The translations under genes were made by a program, and so were the position numbers. From IMG/VR virus record IMGVR_UViG_2740892211_000008: a stretch of 5,815 bases of DNA; one strand, given 5' to 3'. The DNA is from a virus. Taxonomy: Duplodnaviria > Heunggongvirae > Uroviricota > Caudoviricetes. Every line of letters starts with the position of its first letter. Positions within the stretch are counted from its first letter, which is position 1. Of this stretch, positions 214 through 5,224 are shown in pieces. Below the pieces are notes generated by a model. It was not told the DNA's origin and made no database searches. It worked only from the letters and a program-made list of their open reading frames with translations.

Positions 214-534
214 TTATTTTGAATCAAAAGAATTAATGCTTTTTGTTGAAAAGTAATTTTCAAGGGGTTCTATTCGAATTCCTTTCTTTTTCATTAACAA
301 GCCAAGCCCCTTATCAATGATGTCCATTAGATCCAGGAAGTATTTTTCATGTAAATCCTGGTTATCAGAGAGCTGCTTCTCTTCGTACAGACCGATAAAG
401 GCACGACGCACGTTACCGGATATAGTATCGATGGTTTCTTTTTCTACGGTACTCAGGTCAAGAGTCGCCAGTTGGGAACGAACTATATTCGCTGCCATTT
501 CCTGGAATTGCATTGGTAAATCTTTAAATTCCAT
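214..534 (-). CDS. Hypothetical 106-aa protein, AT-rich cargo gene at the distal end of the leftward operon
   Basis: ORF of 106 codons with GAGG about 8 nt upstream of the ATG at 534. Visibly lower GC than the neighbouring immunity genes. No signal peptide or transmembrane segment apparent and no family recognised. Confidence 0.6.
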   Translation of the reverse strand: MEFKDLPMQFQEMAANIVRSQLATLDLSTVEKETIDTISGNVRRAFIGLYEEKQLSDNQDLHEKYFLDLMDIIDKGLGLLMKKKGIRIEPLENYFSTKSINSFDSK

Positions 535-934: not shown

Positions 935-1090
935 TCACTCACCTGAGTTTCTTTCCAGCCAGCGACGGGCACCATTTTCGGTTTTAAACGTTTTGCTTTT
1001 GGTATACGTCATCGCGGTGAATGTGCCGTCCTGGTTGGGAAACACGCCGTACACCAGAGATTCGTTGTTGCCAAGACCGATAGTATCCAT
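935..1090 (-). CDS. ydfA: YdfA-like small prophage protein (51 aa)
   Basis: Start chosen at the internal ATG at 1090 (MDTIGLGNNESLVYGVFPNQDGTFTAMTYTKSKTFKTENGARRWLERNSGE), which has GAGGT 5 nt upstream. The 69-aa version in the ORF track has no RBS. Length and position match remembered Qin YdfA (51 aa). Confidence 0.6.
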   Translation of the reverse strand: MDTIGLGNNESLVYGVFPNQDGTFTAMTYTKSKTFKTENGARRWLERNSGE

Positions 1091-1159: not shown

Positions 1160-1225
1160 TGAGTGAAATTTAGAATAACCTAAGTCATATGGTCAAGATT
1201 TTTATGTAGAAAAACCTAAGTTTTT
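1160..1225 (-). promoter_or_regulatory. Candidate leftward promoter and operator region upstream of the ydfA-like operon
   Basis: Minus strand has TTGACC (complement of 1191-1196) and a weak -10-like hexamer around 1168-1174. The 10-mer GACTTAGGTT (complement of 1177-1186) lies in the spacer, and a second AACCTAAG copy is at 1213-1220. The same 10-mer recurs in the repressor/cro intergenic region. Confidence 0.4.
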
Positions 1226-1291
1226 TGGTGTAAAAAACACAAGTGTTTGAAAGTTTGTGCTTTTTATTACAGGGTGTGGAGAAAAAAGGGG

Positions 1292-1699
1292 TTATTTGTT
1301 TGCGCTTCTTTTGCGAGCTTTAAGTAGTTCTTCAAAAAGTTTGTTGAAATTTTCAACTCGAGCACGCATCTCTGACAACAGGGCCTTTTGCTCTGAGTCA
1401 GGCAGTGCGTCGAACAGTTGAAGTAACTCTTTTTGATCTTCTGTCAGAATGGCTGGCTGATTATTCGGGATCGGTTCGCCTGGTTGTTTATCTTCATCCC
1501 CAAAAAGAAGCCAAGTCGGTGAGCACTGAAGCGCTTGGCTCAGTGCGAATAATCTTTTCCCCGCCGGCTGTGTTTCATCTCTTTCCCATTGAGAAATTGT
1601 TACGTGAGCCACTTTGACCAGCTTACCTAATGCGGCCTGAGACAGTTTTAATTTTTTACGCCTATGTAAGAGGCGAGCACCGAAGGTTTCGTTTTTCAT
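1292..1699 (-). CDS. dicA: DicA-like XRE-family HTH prophage repressor (135 aa, cI functional analogue)
   Basis: N-terminal HTH (KLSQAALGKLVKVAHVTISQWE) and a C-terminal segment (LFALSQALQCSPTWLLFGDEDKQPG ... MRARVENFNKLFEELLKARKR) that closely matches my memory of E. coli Qin DicA. Same 135-aa length. Divergent from a Cro-like gene. No Shine-Dalgarno upstream of the ATG. Confidence 0.8.
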   Translation of the reverse strand: MKNETFGARLLHRRKKLKLSQAALGKLVKVAHVTISQWERDETQPAGKRLFALSQALQCSPTWLLFGDEDKQPGEPIPNNQPAILTEDQKELLQLFDALPDSEQKALLSEMRARVENFNKLFEELLKARKRSANK

Positions 1700-1775
1700 A
1701 TTAGGGAATTCTAATTTTTCTTGACTTAGGTTTCTCTACGATCTGGTTTCCTTAGGAAAATCTAAGGAGCTCGAT
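1700..1775. promoter_or_regulatory. Divergent promoter/operator region between the repressor and the Cro-like gene
   Basis: 76-bp intergenic region. Contains TTGACT (1721-1726) overlapping GACTTAGGTT (1723-1732), plus CTTAGG at 1751-1756 and CTAAGG at 1762-1767. AAGGAG RBS sits before the cro-like ATG. A TAGAAT-like -10 on the minus strand (complement of 1708-1713) sits about 7 nt from the repressor ATG. Confidence 0.5.
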
Positions 1776-2003
1776 ATGTTGAAAATTGATGCTATAGCGT
1801 TTTTTGGCAGCAAAACAAAGCTTGCCAATGCCGCAGGAGTTAGGTTGGCAAGCATTGCTGCATGGGGGGAACTGGTTCCTGAAGGTCGCGCGATGCGCCT
1901 GCAAGAGGCATCCGGCGGGGAACTTCAGTACGACCCCAAAGTTTATGACGAATATCGTAAGGCAAAGCGGGCGGGGCGGTTGAACAATGAAAATCACCCC
2001 TGA
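1776..2003 (+). CDS. dicC: Cro/DicC-like small DNA-binding regulator (75 aa; YdaS-like)
   Basis: 75-aa ORF divergent from the repressor with AAGGAG 6-7 nt upstream. Size and position match the cro/dicC slot of lambdoid immunity regions. The dicC assignment is by position and size only. Confidence 0.65.
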   Translation: MLKIDAIAFFGSKTKLANAAGVRLASIAAWGELVPEGRAMRLQEASGGELQYDPKVYDEYRKAKRAGRLNNENHP

Positions 2004-2538
2004 ACAGGTTTGTGAGGCTCTGGATGCCTGGGTATGCCGACCAGGAATGACACAGGAGCAGGCGACGATATTAATCACGGAAGCATTCTGGGCTCTGAAA
2101 GAACGCCCGAACATCGATGTTCAACGCGTCACGTTTGATGATGGCGCGGTTGATCAACGGGCGCTGGGCGTTAACCGGGTGAAGATATTCGAACGCTGGA
2201 AATCTATCGACACCAGGGATAAGCGGGAAAAATTCACGGCGCTGATTCCGGCAATTATGGCGGCTATCCGGATCAGTGATTTCAGGTTGTATCGTGAAAT
2301 TACTGACGGAAAAAGCATTACGTACATGATCGCCGGGTTAAACAAAGAATATGGCGATGTGGTGGAGTCAGGGCTACTTTTTGCGGATCCAGCTGTTGTG
2401 GAACGTGAGACTGACGAACTTATAGAAAAAGCTATTGCTTTCAAGCGTGCGTATCGTCAGCAATACCAACATTACTTTGCAGATAAACAAATATCTGTCT
2501 GGGGTTCGTATGAGTATCGATGCGCTACGATGGGCTAA
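1987..2538 (+). CDS. YdaT-like protein (183 aa), the proposed CII functional equivalent
   Basis: Immediately downstream of and overlapping the Cro-like gene by 17 bp, which is the slot occupied by YdaT in Rac/CP-933P-type prophages. Family assignment is by position and general resemblance, not an alignment. Confidence 0.5.
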   Translation: MKITPEQVCEALDAWVCRPGMTQEQATILITEAFWALKERPNIDVQRVTFDDGAVDQRALGVNRVKIFERWKSIDTRDKREKFTALIPAIMAAIRISDFRLYREITDGKSITYMIAGLNKEYGDVVESGLLFADPAVVERETDELIEKAIAFKRAYRQQYQHYFADKQISVWGSYEYRCATMG

Positions 2539-3550
2539 AAAGGTGAAAACCGGCAGTTCATCCAGTAAGTCAGTATTGACCTGGCTTGCTGATATGTGCG
2601 GTGCCGATTTGTGTGCATACCCGTCTGTATCTGCACTGGCAGAAGTAACGGAACTGAACAAAAAGACTGTGCAGGACAGCTTACGACACCTGATGGAGAT
2701 TGGGTTAATTGTTGATACCGGTGAGAGAAAAGGCCGGACAAAACAAATTGTGGTGTACCGACTTATCGGTGTTGAAGAAAGTGTTACCGAGGATGAATAC
2801 ACCCAAAAACGGGAGTCTTTAAAGGTAGGTAAAATTGGTACTGTTAATAAAAACAGAACCGAAAACGGTTATGTTTCAGCACAAAACAGCCCCAAAAACG
2901 GAACTCTTTGCTGCATGGAAAATAACCAAAGACACCCAAATTTTCCATCAAAGACACCCAAAAACGGATCACGGAACCCAAAGGAACCCAAAGATTTAAA
3001 CCCCACACATAACGCACGCGAGAGTGCTCCGACCAGTGAGCAGGAAGTTTTGTCGTTACAGGCAGTCCCCCCTGTATTCCTGGATGGCCTGAGCGAACCC
3101 ATCGGAAAATTTCCGATGACCGATAACTGGTATCCGTCACGGGATTTTCGACGACGGGCTGCGTTGTGGGGGATGGCTTTGCCGGAGACAGAATTCACAC
3201 CTGCTGAACTTGCCGCATTCCGGGACTACTGGGCAGCGGAGGGGAAAGTGTTTACGCAGGTTCAGTGGGAGCAGAAATTCGCCCGTCACGTAAATCACGT
3301 CAGGGCGCAGGTTAAACCAGTCAGCAAGGGGGTAAACCATGCAGCAGCACCAGGTGGAACCGCATCACGGGCAGTTCAGGAAATTCGGGCAGCACGTGAG
3401 CAGTGGGAACGTGAAAACGGATTTATCAGCGACGGAAACGGCCTGGAAGCTGTGGGAGCTCATGGGGGAGGTTTATTCGAACCGCTGGACCCAGAAGAAC
3501 GGGGCCGCACCTTCGAAGCTCTGGATTGCACAGATTGGCGCGATGACTGA
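2510..3550 (+). CDS. Replication initiator, lambda O functional analogue, with N-terminal HTH/winged-helix and C-terminal DnaT-like region (346 aa from ATG 2510)
   Basis: Start placed at the internal ATG at 2510 (MSIDALRWAKKVKTGSSSSKSVLTWLADMCGADLCAYPSVSALAEVTELNKKTVQDSLRHLMEIGLIVDTG), a typical phage initiator HTH N-terminus. The C-terminal segment (TPAELAAFRDYWAAEGKVFTQVQWEQKFARHVNHVRAQ) resembles DnaT-like domains of prophage replication proteins. A low-complexity linker holds iteron-like DNA repeats. The last 212 bp overlap the P-like gene out of frame. Confidence 0.7.
   Translation: MSIDALRWAKKVKTGSSSSKSVLTWLADMCGADLCAYPSVSALAEVTELNKKTVQDSLRHLMEIGLIVDTGERKGRTKQIVVYRLIGVEESVTEDEYTQKRESLKVGKIGTVNKNRTENGYVSAQNSPKNGTLCCMENNQRHPNFPSKTPKNGSRNPKEPKDLNPTHNARESAPTSEQEVLSLQAVPPVFLDGLSEPIGKFPMTDNWYPSRDFRRRAALWGMALPETEFTPAELAAFRDYWAAEGKVFTQVQWEQKFARHVNHVRAQVKPVSKGVNHAAAPGGTASRAVQEIRAAREQWERENGFISDGNGLEAVGAHGGGLFEPLDPEERGRTFEALDCTDWRDD
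2856..2994. repeat. Iteron-like repeat cluster inside the O-like gene (putative replication origin)
   Basis: Repeated CCCAAAAACGG-type units at about 2858, 2891, 2932, 2955, 2975 and 2986 (for example GAACCGAAAACGG, CCCCAAAAACGG, ACACCCAAAAACGG, GAACCCAAAGG twice). An AT-rich stretch lies just upstream at 2821-2855. Lambda's origin is likewise iterons embedded in the O gene. Confidence 0.45.
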
Positions 3551-4004
3551 GCAGCAAATCCGGCAGGTCTGCCGCCAGTGCATGGACTGCTGCCGGGCGG
3601 GTGAAACATGGCCTCCGGACCTGGCTGAGTTTGTGGCGCTGATTTCGGAAAGCGGGGCCAATCCATTTGGTCTGACGGTGGATGCTGTGATGGAGGAGTA
3701 CCGCCGCTGGCGCAATGAGTCCTGGCGATACGACGGAAGTGATAAGTACCCGTGGTCTCAGCCTGTGCTGTATCACATTTGCCTCGAGATGCGTTCAAAG
3801 GGGATTGAACGCCAGATGACCGAAGGGGAGTTAAAACGGCTTGCAGAACGGCAGCTGACGAAATGGGCAAAGCATGTTAGCAACGGCCTGAGTGTTCCGC
3901 CTGTCCGGCGACAACTGGCAGCACCCAAACGTCCTGCGGGACCAACGCCAATTGAGTTGCTGAAACAGGAATATGAACGCCGGAAAGCGGCTGGGTTTGT
4001 CTGA
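3339..4004 (+). CDS. Lambda P-like replication protein (221 aa; helicase-loader family)
   Basis: Strong RBS AAGGGGG 9 nt upstream of ATG 3339. Segments (AMTEQQIRQVCRQ..., PDLAEFVAL, YPWSQPVLYHICLEMR, TEGELKRLAERQL) resemble the lambda P layout as I remember it (TTMEQVNAGMRVARRQ, PGQFVAWC, YPWKSNAHYWLVTNLYQNMR, TDAELRRKAADEL). Sits directly after the O-like gene as in lambda. Confidence 0.65.
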   Translation: MQQHQVEPHHGQFRKFGQHVSSGNVKTDLSATETAWKLWELMGEVYSNRWTQKNGAAPSKLWIAQIGAMTEQQIRQVCRQCMDCCRAGETWPPDLAEFVALISESGANPFGLTVDAVMEEYRRWRNESWRYDGSDKYPWSQPVLYHICLEMRSKGIERQMTEGELKRLAERQLTKWAKHVSNGLSVPPVRRQLAAPKRPAGPTPIELLKQEYERRKAAGFV

Positions 4005-4981: not shown

Positions 4982-5224
4982 GTGCCACTGGAGATGACTG
5001 TACCTAAGTTCAGGGGAGAAGAACACGTCCGGTGGGATGGTCGGGCCAGATTTAAAGGGCAGGTCATGGCTCCAGCCAGTACGCTGGCAATGGAGGCTGC
5101 CTGGCTGGAAATTGATATGGGAACCACGCCACTCAGGGATTTACTGCCGGTCCAGAGAATAAATTCCTGTTACGGTTACACCACTGTGATCTTGCAAGTG
5201 CAGGAAAGTAGGTCTACACGGTAA
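4982..5224 (+). CDS. Hypothetical ORF (80 aa from GTG 4982, or shorter from ATG 4994), possibly a gene remnant
   Basis: Open frame only. No good RBS for either start and no recognisable domain. Sits where the phage module gives way to the AT-rich right arm. Confidence 0.25.
   Translation: MPLEMTVPKFRGEEHVRWDGRARFKGQVMAPASTLAMEAAWLEIDMGTTPLRDLLPVQRINSCYGYTTVILQVQESRSTR

Follow-up and report, generated by a model that had tools for sequence, protein, structure and literature searches.

A probable DicA-type immunity switch with TTAG-N6-CTAA operators on both sides of the repressor gene and a predicted near-leaderless repressor mRNA

The window, by which we mean the whole stretch of 5,815 nucleotides analysed, holds a gene for a DicA-type repressor of 135 amino acids (1292-1699, minus strand), 61% identical to K-12 DicA (E 5e-60), and, divergent from it, a DicC/P22-Cro-like gene (1776-2003, plus strand) whose product is 84% identical to K-12 DicC. 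The repressor joins a P22 C2-like helix-turn-helix N-terminal domain to a short C-terminal domain and has no peptidase domain: Pfam gives HTH families only (HTH_3, E 8e-14), and residues 2-69 match the N-terminal domain of P22 C2 (E 1e-21), with V33, S36 and Q37 of the recognition helix conserved. The cro-like gene matches Pfam P22_Cro (E 3e-13) and the P22 Cro structure 1RZS (E 2.5e-7), carries the Shine-Dalgarno sequence AAGGAG at 1764-1769 (-8.3 kcal/mol) and is followed by a gene of the YdaT family. To the left lies a ydfA-like gene (935-1090, minus strand; Pfam DUF1391, E 5.7e-27), the first of a leftward dicB-type operon, which has a Shine-Dalgarno sequence of -8.3 kcal/mol before its ATG at 1090 and whose equivalent in a 99.6%-identical O103:H2 copy is annotated ydfA. 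The leftward genes in relatives are ydfA, ydfC and dicB; ydfC and dicB follow the ydfA-like gene in the O103:H2 copy and are replaced or cut by IS1 in the window, where dicF and dicB are cut off by this element. The window copy is bounded by IS1. A hairpin with a U-run after the repressor stop codon (1231-1266, minus strand; MFE -9.2 kcal/mol, z -2.9, with 1 of 200 shuffles folding equally well) is a probable terminator parting the repressor transcript from the leftward promoter, and divergent loci have hairpins of other sequence with T-runs at the same place. An Rfam scan of the whole window returned nothing at the gathering threshold.

The leftward promoter (the PL or dicBp equivalent; 1168-1197, minus strand) has a -35 TTGACC at 1197-1192, an 18-nt spacer and a -10 TAAATT at 1173-1168, reaches 9 of 12 matches in a consensus scan and occupies the same position as TTGACC-17-TAATCT in K-12; its -35 is invariant in close relatives. 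The rightward promoter (the PR or dicCp equivalent; 1721-1749, plus strand) has a -35 TTGACT at 1721-1726, a 17-nt spacer and a -10 TGGTTT at 1744-1749, and both -35 elements, TTGACC on the left and TTGACT on the right, are those of K-12 Qin. The rightward -35 hardly varies, and at the same spacing relatives have a hexamer of the form TAnnnT, in most cases TAGTTT; the window has a G at the -11 position (1745), an A-to-G change that is also found in 7 of 77 related viral contigs. Judged from the hexamer, the TGGTTT -10 probably weakens the rightward promoter of the window copy, and part of the switch may no longer be functional. Other rightward -10 elements were considered, such as TACGAT at 1737-1742, and rejected, there being no usable -35 at 16-18 nt and relatives keeping TAnnnT at 1744-1749. 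The -35 of the repressor promoter, GAGAAA, is poor, so that its activity probably needs an activator; in K-12 the activator of the dicA promoter is DicA bound at Oc (PMC3441716).

Five P22-like palindromic dyads of the form TTAG-N6-CTAA flank the short repressor gene, and all five copies found in the window with at most one mismatch fall in the two intergenic regions. On the left, the exact dyad OL1, TTAGAATAACCTAA (1170-1183), overlaps the leftward -10, and OL2, GTAGAAAAACCTAA (1206-1219, one mismatch), lies upstream of the leftward -35 at 36 bp from OL1, the two dyads bracketing the promoter TTGACC-18-TAAATT. On the right, the exact dyad OR3, TTAGGGAATTCTAA (1701-1714), contains the repressor -10 TAGAAT; OR2, TTAGGTTTCTCTAC (1726-1739, one mismatch), sits between the rightward -35 and -10; and OR1, TTAGGAAAATCTAA (1752-1765, exact), lies over the predicted rightward start and overlaps the cro-like Shine-Dalgarno sequence. 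These three correspond to the Oa, Om and Oc operators of dicA-dicC-dicBp, which were reportedly described by Bejar et al. in 1986 and 1988, the original operator description being that of 1986. They stand at the same offsets from the repressor ATG as in K-12, OR1 being homologous in position to K-12 Oc. The earlier literature is said to give three left operators; the window shows only two convincing left dyads, and a search beside and between them, allowing up to two mismatches, yielded no third.

Regions of 34-36% G+C, in which TTAG and CTAA resemble promoter words, could in principle generate such copies by chance. Local shuffles that preserve dinucleotides effectively refute this, with at least five sites in 0 of 20,000 for both regions together and P < 5e-5 for the right region and 0.0025 for the left. 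Furthermore, in 11 loci from eight genera the regulatory DNA, 3.3 kb in all, holds 31 exact dyads and the 35.9 kb of flanks none, at positions that are fixed relative to the repressor ATG, and a chance origin of the motif can for practical purposes be dismissed. Each of the 11 loci has an OR3-type dyad that encloses TAGAAT (TAGCAT in K-12) and starts 13-16 nt upstream of the ATG; it is exact in 10 loci and has one mismatch in the eleventh, Enterobacter. Each also has an OR1-type dyad with no more than one mismatch, which starts 64-66 nt upstream of the ATG. Of the two OR2 half-sites, the one joined to the -35 (TTGACTTAG) is retained by most loci whatever their genus, and some loci have single-base variants of it; the other half is degenerate in the group formed by K-12, E. 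albertii and Citrobacter. Pantoea, Erwinia, E. albertii and E. ruysiae share OL1 as TTAGGTTATTCTAA (opposite strand), from which Enterobacter departs by a single spacer change; in close E. coli relatives OL1 is near-invariant (one spacer change, A/G, among five sequences). OL2 is an inverted copy of the OR2 site (16 nt, 94%) and is invariant in close relatives, and most other loci likewise have two left dyads, 35-36 bp apart. Among close relatives generally, the operators and -35 elements are invariant or nearly so and the bases between them vary.

The initial annotation had approached the same sequences from a different unit, the 10-mer GACTTAGGTT, which it placed in both early promoter regions and which is indeed present exactly at 1177-1186 (minus strand, within OL1) and 1723-1732 (plus strand, running into OR2). 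With one-mismatch copies at 1213-1222 (minus) and 1837-1846 (plus) there are four matches vs 0.26 expected, and at least four occurred in 0 of 200 shuffles. The additional CTTAGG copies that it listed are found at 1215-1220 (minus) and 1751-1756 (plus); others lie at 1179-1184 (minus) and 1725-1730 (plus), and an unrelated one at 5003. Its statement that the 10-mer overlaps a -35 in both regions holds on the right, for TTGACT, and fails on the left, where TTGACC lies 5 nt upstream and the 10-mer falls in the spacer of the leftward promoter. As the functional unit the 10-mer does not stand: the repeated unit is longer and palindromic, and the 10-mer is one half of the TTAG-N6-CTAA dyad. The repeats pair 1171-1187 with 1722-1738 (17 nt, 88%) and 1206-1221 with 1724-1739 (16 nt, 94%), and these 16-17-nt pairs between the two regions are inverted repeats. 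One could still regard GACTTAGGTT itself as a monomer site that recurs in both promoters in association with a TTGAC -35, given the excess of copies and the overlap of the right one with TTGACT. However, the 10/10 identity of left and right copies rests on one SNP at 1185 that is missing from the closest relatives: the O103:H2 copy has GCCTTAGGTT at the left 10-mer, most other close relatives also differ 5' of CTTAG, and across 78 related loci there is free variation at the GA of the left copy, while CTTAGGTT is retained in most close relatives, with single-base variants in a few haplotypes. The left -35 is 5 nt off, and every copy forms a dyad with a second half-site, conserved at N6 spacing; the exception is the one-mismatch copy at 1837, which falls within the coding sequence of the cro-like gene and lacks such a partner. 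We therefore hold a monomer site to be very improbable; as part of the explanation that we favour, the 10-mer is in all likelihood the stronger half-site CTTAGG plus a T-rich spacer, its right copy fused to the -35 TTGACT.

A DicA-like repressor, a divergent DicC/P22-Cro-like gene, three dyads between them and a second set over the leftward promoter, the marks of a Qin/DicA-type region, are all found here, in the gene order of K-12 Qin dicA-dicC-dicBp. The ydfA gene, leftward promoter, repressor (135 residues in both) and cro-like gene agree with K-12 in order and orientation, as do the TTAG-N6-CTAA core with its distances from the repressor ATG, and the start lacking a Shine-Dalgarno sequence with its -10 inside the proximal operator. 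The region is very probably the immunity switch of a Qin/DicA-type lambdoid prophage, with operators on both sides of the short repressor gene. This immunity type is present in 751 of 5,426 complete E. coli genomes, O157:H7 included.

That the motif belongs to the operator set through which the DicA-like repressor controls both promoters, as originally proposed, is supported by homology to K-12, by the Oc core and by the conservation of the dyad across eight genera. Among the K-12 DicA operators, Oc, TTGTTAGTCATAACTAACAA (TTGTTAG-N6-CTAACAA), is the one that was tested; DicA binds to it in vivo, and a single A-to-C change that turns CTAA into CTCA abolishes binding (PMC3441716). The window dyad core is identical to that of Oc. 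In O157:H7, overproduction of DicA lowers dicB expression, and overproduction of DicC lowers dicA and raises dicB (PMC6915034); the allele studied there is that of the window, and the published primers match it. By homology to K-12 (PMC3441716, PMC10448788) and from the O157:H7 overexpression genetics (PMC6915034), the repressor would be expected to bind these operators and to repress both outward promoters. A dimer of the 135-residue protein would bind 14-18-bp dyads with the core TTAG-N6-CTAA, three of them in the interval that separates the repressor gene from its divergent cro/dicC-like neighbour and two downstream of the repressor gene over the ydfA/dicB-type promoter. Judging by their positions, repressor at 1752-1765 and 1726-1739 would cover the rightward start site and spacer, and repressor at 1170-1183 the leftward -10; the dyad at 1701-1714 holds the repressor's own -10, and if excess repressor or the Cro-like protein occupied it, repressor synthesis would be turned off.

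In the in vivo assay of Yun et al., K-12 Oa and Om showed no DicA binding (data not shown there; PMC3441716), so that 1701-1714 and 1726-1739 may be weak, may need cooperativity or may serve the Cro-like protein. The same result could be read to mean that only the outermost dyads, 1752-1765 and 1170-1183, are true repressor operators and that the proximal and middle ones are mainly promoter elements or DicC targets, which would fit the degenerate half of the middle site in the group formed by K-12, E. albertii and Citrobacter; moreover, since the -10 TAGAAT falls within 1701-1714 and the -35 adjoins 1726-1739, promoter function alone could conserve both dyads. We consider this unlikely, as the middle site is a near-complete dyad in the window's allele group with 94% identity to OL2 over 16 nt, the proximal site keeps both half-sites in 11 of 11 loci, including the CTAA half that lies outside the -10, and P22 and lambda use three sites cooperatively, a kind of binding that single-site assays miss. 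Repressor operators at the proximal and middle as well as the outermost dyads remain the reading that we prefer.

The repressor ATG at 1699 (minus strand) was noted at the outset to have no ribosome-binding site, and its anti-Shine-Dalgarno duplex of -0.7 kcal/mol bears this out, the other window genes with a credible start lying at -5.4 to -11.8 kcal/mol. No ATG, GTG or TTG occurs between the upstream in-frame stop (1738-1736) and this ATG, at which the N-termini of homologues align. The -10-like element reported beside it is TAGAAT at 1713-1708 (minus strand), which ends 8 nt before the ATG and is followed by 6 nt and then by A1701 (minus strand), the last A of OR3, 2 nt before the ATG. All 11 loci share this succession of a TAGAAT-type -10, 6 nt and an A, which gives leaders of 0-3 nt; for Klebsiella phage ST405-OXA48phi1.2 the corresponding A is the A of the ATG and the leader 0 nt. 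The start of K-12 dicA was mapped 3 nt upstream of its ATG by dRNA-seq, backed by RLM-RT-PCR (PMC4681348), and falls on the A homologous to A1701, which predicts a 2-nt leader for the window repressor, beginning at A1701. Furthermore, dicA is among the listed known leaderless genes (PMC8794815), and 5' RACE together with N-terminal sequencing showed PaaR2 of CP-933P, a positional analogue, to be leaderless (PMC8630535). These two precedents, together with the conserved -10, its spacing and the lack of a Shine-Dalgarno sequence, support the suggestion in the initial annotation of a leaderless repressor transcript like lambda cI from PRM. By analogy with the mapped K-12 orthologue, the mRNA would start at A1701 with a 2-nt leader and no Shine-Dalgarno sequence and would be translated in the leaderless manner of lambda cI from PRM; that it has essentially no leader is, on these grounds, almost certain, although a predicted 2-nt leader is not a 5'-terminal AUG and would count against the strict leaderless form.

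A different origin for most of the repressor would be a leadered transcript that the CII-like YdaT activates from a PRE-like promoter located in the cro-like gene or beyond it, with the ATG-adjacent -10 being incidental. A YdaT-family gene does follow the cro-like gene, in CP-933P YdaT has been described as functionally equivalent to CII (PMC9986795), and lambda has, for establishment, a leadered PRE transcript as a further source of cI. However, the published YdaT site, TTGATT-N6-AATCAA, has no good match near the right place: a search for it gave 10 weak matches vs 4.4 expected, none of them convincingly placed, the best having 2 mismatches at 219-236 and one at 1980-1997 having 3. A leadered transcript would still present no Shine-Dalgarno sequence before the ATG, the mapped primary start in K-12 is 3 nt from the ATG, and a PRE-like promoter could coexist with a leaderless maintenance transcript without replacing it. 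We judge this origin improbable, and a maintenance transcript starting at A1701 is the one that we retain.

The arrangement can be set against better-known switches. The P22 operator consensus ATTTAAGATATCTTAAAT, TTAA-N6-TTAA, has the N6 geometry of the window dyads (PMC5175364), and the two systems share 4-bp half-site cores 6 bp apart in tandem sets at two promoters, a clearly homologous N-terminal DNA-binding domain (P22 C2, PDB 2R1J) and homologous Cro proteins. They differ in the half-site itself, TTAG in the window and TTAA in P22, in recognition-helix residues 31, 32 and 34 (A-H-x-T against S-N-x-A) and in the C-terminal part, which in the window is a short helical domain and not of the RecA-cleavable peptidase type. 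By analogy, induction would be expected to go through an antirepressor, as it does for K-12 DicA (PMC10448788). CP-933P of E. coli O157:H7, with its PaaR2-YdaS-YdaT set, likewise has a short non-cleavable HTH repressor at the cI position, a repressor mRNA shown experimentally for PaaR2 to be leaderless, a divergent cro-like gene followed by ydaT, and operators at PR/PRM and a PL-like promoter. Unlike the window, it has its own repressor, four 18-bp inverted repeats with the half-site consensus GTTTAGTAA, and a toxin-antitoxin pair downstream of paaR2. The cI mRNA of lambda made from PRM is the classic leaderless mRNA, and the window resembles lambda in having its repressor gene between OL/PL and OR/PR, the maintenance -10 inside the repressor-proximal operator, no Shine-Dalgarno sequence and a predicted start at or beside the AUG. 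The repressor family and operator sequence are unrelated to those of lambda, the leader predicted in the window is 2 nt as against a 5'-terminal AUG, and the activating site reported for K-12 is the distal Oc, not the middle operator (PMC3441716).

Within the DicA family the window copy departs from K-12 in several respects. The repressor is only 61% identical, the middle operator is near-complete where that of K-12 is degenerate, the predicted leader is 2 nt vs 3, the early right genes are YdaT-like, DnaT-like/O and P, and dicF and dicB have been lost to the IS1 junction. The core is flanked as CC-TTAG in the window vs TG-TTAG in K-12, and helix 2 reads SQAALGK, as in P22 C2, vs TQRSLAK; with these differences in flanks and helix, a different immunity specificity is possible. 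The allele group concerned comprises the window, the O157:H7 'PPompW' prophages and the Pantoea, Erwinia, Enterobacter and Klebsiella-phage relatives, and has operators of the form CC-TTAG...CTAA-GG (TG-TTAG...CTAA-CA in K-12), the P22-like helix 2 and a complete middle operator (one mismatch in the window). One could tentatively speculate, at somewhat less than even chances, that this group is a separate immunity specificity in the DicA family, of which the window copy has in addition been silenced on the right by the A-to-G change at -11. If so, the complete middle operator would permit occupancy of all three sites in the manner of lambda or P22.

The locus is an ordinary copy of the known E. 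coli Qin/DicA-type switch and does not reveal a new mechanism, and its significance beyond correct annotation is small. The repressor, operators and promoters of a DicA-type immunity region can now be annotated with confidence. The comparison yields a family-wide operator rule, TTAG-N6-CTAA, and a geometry that is fixed across the family, in which the repressor transcript would start from the last A of the proximal operator with a leader of 0-3 nt, thereby extending the link between prophage repressors and leaderless translation.

The 10-mer GACTTAGGTT, which the initial annotation proposed as an operator shared by both early promoter regions, does occur exactly on either side of the gene for the HTH repressor (135 aa; 1292-1699, minus strand): at 1177-1186 (minus strand), on the side of the leftward small genes, which include a ydfA-like DUF1391 gene (935-1090, minus strand), and at 1723-1732 (plus strand), on the side of the divergent P22-Cro-like gene (1776-2003, plus strand). 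With one-mismatch copies counted there are four matches against 0.26 expected, a number reached in 0 of 200 shuffles, and the CTTAGG copies likewise lie where they had been placed. The identity of the two copies over all ten bases hangs on one SNP at 1185: the O103:H2 copy, 99.6% identical, reads GCCTTAGGTT at the left 10-mer, and across 78 related viral-contig loci there is free variation 5' of CTTAG, with the dyads and the -35 nearly fixed. The proposed overlap with a -35 element applies on the right only; on the left TTGACC (1197-1192) sits 5 nt upstream of the 10-mer, which falls within the promoter spacer.

The repeated element exceeds the 10-mer in length and is palindromic. A repeat search pairs 1171-1187 with 1722-1738 (17 nt, 88%) and 1206-1221 with 1724-1739 (16 nt, 94%), and TTAG-N6-CTAA, searched window-wide with at most one mismatch, gives exactly five matches, starting at 1170, 1206, 1701, 1726 and 1752, all confined to the two intergenic regions, with two rather than three on the left. 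When these AT-rich intergenic regions alone were shuffled locally with dinucleotides preserved, 0.07 dyads were expected on the right against three observed (P < 5e-5) and 0.08 on the left against two (P = 0.0025), and five dyads arose in 0 of 20,000 joint shuffles of both regions. We compared the window with relatives whose repressors are 53-74% identical (Pantoea, Erwinia, Enterobacter, E. albertii, E. ruysiae, two Citrobacter species and Yersinia), adding a Klebsiella phage and K-12. All 11 loci have a dyad starting 13-16 nt before the repressor ATG (exact in 10, with one mismatch in Enterobacter) and a second one, exact or with one mismatch, starting 64-66 nt before it; downstream of the repressor gene one or two dyads flank a -35-like hexamer (TTGAC, TTGCC or TTGAT), 35-36 bp apart in loci having two. 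Exact dyads number 31 in the regulatory DNA (300 nt per locus) and 0 in the remaining 35.9 kb. This conservation of positions and counts over 11 loci strongly supports the dyad, rather than the 10-mer, as the conserved functional unit.

The repressor aligns with K-12 DicA (61% identity, E 5e-60) and the cro-like protein with DicC (84% identity). Residues 2-69 of the repressor match the solved DNA-binding domain of P22 C2 (E 1e-21), with recognition-helix residues V33, S36 and Q37 conserved between the two, and the cro-like protein matches P22 Cro. Since the P22 operator consensus is ATTTAAGATATCTTAAAT, i.e. TTAA-N6-TTAA (PMC5175364), each window site is a P22-type dyad in which one base per half-site is changed. 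Read in the same orientation, K-12 Qin has the same plan of operators and promoters: its ATG-proximal operator, Oa, is the dyad TTAGctaatgCTAA, two bases from the dicA ATG; Om is a degenerate middle site joined to a -35 TTGACT; Oc, TTGTTAGttatgaCTAACAA, adjoins dicC; and TTAGtcatggCTAA, downstream of dicA, overlaps the -10 of a promoter starting with TTGACC. Yun et al. found that DicA binds Oc (5'-TTGTTAGTCATAACTAACAA) in vivo, that a single A-to-C change in its CTAA half abolishes binding, that from Oc DicA acts as a repressor of dicC and an activator of dicA, and, as data not shown, that there was no binding of K-12 DicA to Oa or Om by itself (PMC3441716). Ragunathan and Vanderpool describe an immunity region whose operator sets lie at dicCp (PR equivalent) and dicBp (PL equivalent), and note that DicA has no site for RecA cleavage and that an antirepressor controls it (PMC10448788). 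Every sequence-testable feature of the Qin/DicA immunity family is present at the window locus, as is every such feature of lambda PRM-type leaderless repressor genes; the initial annotation read the sequence correctly overall, and this biology was already known from the orthologous locus in K-12.

The window nevertheless differs from K-12 in that its repressor is only 61% identical to DicA and has a P22-like helix 2, its middle operator is more complete, and its dyads are flanked as CC-TTAG rather than TG-TTAG. The CC-TTAG flank occurs with helix 2 SQAALGK in the window, Pantoea, Erwinia, Enterobacter and the Klebsiella phage, and TG-TTAG with TQRSLAK or TQREAAR/K in K-12, E. albertii, E. ruysiae and Citrobacter. 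As a lead drawn from two clades only, these flank and helix-2 classes may mark separate immunity specificity.

The repressor ATG, noted at the outset as having no RBS, indeed has no Shine-Dalgarno, with an anti-SD duplex of -0.7 kcal/mol against -5.4 to -11.8 kcal/mol for the other genes whose starts are credible. There is no alternative start between the upstream in-frame stop and this ATG, and the N-termini of repressor homologues align there. For K-12 dicA, the primary start mapped by dRNA-seq lies 3 nt before the ATG, and RLM-RT-PCR confirmed that the mRNA is leaderless (PMC4681348); dicA counts among the known leaderless genes in a later study (PMC8794815). The K-12 start coincides with the A that ends the proximal dyad, 6 nt after TAGCAT. 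The window reads, in order, TAGAAT, tcccta, A (1701), t and ATG, from which its repressor mRNA is predicted to be leaderless, with a leader of 2 nt. All 11 loci keep the same distance between the -10 and this A, and the gap from the A to the ATG varies from 0 to 3 nt, as expected if transcription starts at that A family-wide. In the Klebsiella phage ST405-OXA48phi1.2 (repressor start 912, minus strand) the last A of the proximal operator is the A of the ATG (CTAATG), so that the leader would be 0 nt, compared with 3 nt in K-12 and 2 nt in the window. The CP-933P repressor PaaR2, which occupies the equivalent position, was shown to be leaderless by 5' RACE together with N-terminal sequencing (PMC8630535).

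From positions and homology we infer three promoters and the logic of their control. The rightward promoter would consist of -35 TTGACT (1721-1726), a 17-nt spacer and a -10 hexamer at 1744-1749; with dyad 1752-1765 covering its predicted start and 1726-1739 occupying its spacer, repressor bound at these sites would block the cro-like operon. The putative leftward promoter (minus strand; -35 TTGACC 1197-1192, 18-nt spacer, -10 TAAATT 1173-1168) would have dyad 1170-1183 overlapping its -10 and 1206-1219 just upstream of its -35. The leftward ydfA transcript has a leader of roughly 70 nt that contains a hairpin, ACACCG-CA-CGGTGT (1142-1155), followed by TCTCAGCAAACAGTTCCGC; the hairpin has no Rfam match, and Enterobacter, Citrobacter and Pantoea carry at the equivalent place a hairpin with changed stem bases and the downstream motif. 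This pattern suggests a conserved RNA element, possibly a nut-like, processing or termination signal. The predicted repressor promoter (minus strand; -35 GAGAAA 1736-1731, 17-nt spacer, -10 TAGAAT 1713-1708) would have its -10 inside dyad 1701-1714, where the Cro-like protein or excess repressor should switch the repressor off; cooperative binding may be needed at the proximal and middle sites, or these may serve DicC. Its poor -35 fits the K-12 repressor promoter, which has no consensus and whose activity needs DicA at Oc (PMC3441716). Immediately past the repressor stop codon, a hairpin and U-run (1231-1266, minus strand; -9.2 kcal/mol, z -2.9) probably form a terminator that insulates the leftward promoter from transcription of the repressor gene; divergent loci have hairpins of other sequence at the equivalent place. 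The proposed logic agrees with genetics in O157:H7, which has the same allele: DicA overproduction lowers dicB, and DicC overproduction lowers dicA and raises dicB (PMC6915034). The primers published there match the window sequence.

The immunity core (1150-1780, 631 nt) occurs at at least 90% identity in 751 of 5,426 complete E. coli genomes, among them O157:H7, whose phage records name the genes dicA and dicC, and the window region is 99.6-99.7% identical to prophages of many E. coli strains, such as O103:H2 12009. The window itself is a 5,815-nt fragment from the early region of a lambdoid prophage. Its ends (1-81 and 5735-5815; 81 nt, perfectly inverted) match an IS1A end by repeat and sequence search, so the fragment sits between two IS1 elements of opposite orientation; the one on the right truncates a paa gene (AcfC-family adhesin, gene start 5642). 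Between them lie also YdaT-family, DnaT-like (O-type) replication, lambda-P-like and DUF1627 genes. The P-like ORF (3339-4004) overlaps the 3' end of the DnaT-like gene (2510-3550) by about 210 nt; RefSeq gives the P gene of the O103:H2 copy a shorter annotation (start equivalent to about 3543), and ATG 3339 is a candidate start only. In O103:H2 12009 ydfA, ydfC and dicB continue leftward, a ydfC-dicB continuation that is missing at the window's left side; since the best-matching E. coli prophages align from about 537 onward only, the left end differs in origin from the canonical ydfC/dicF/dicB segment. The stretch 81-536 contains a 106-aa ORF (214-534, minus strand) with no Pfam match.

The rightward -10 of this remnant (1744-1749) reads TGGTTT, with G at 1745, and O103:H2, O157:H7 and two other E. 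coli copies have TAGTTT. The first two positions are TA in 70 of the 78 viral-contig loci, mostly as TAGTTT, and TGG is found in eight, the window included. A G at the critical -11 position should strongly weaken a sigma-70 promoter. The A-to-G change at -11 has probably crippled the right-operon promoter of the window, and with this G the IS1-bounded remnant may no longer fire its right operon.
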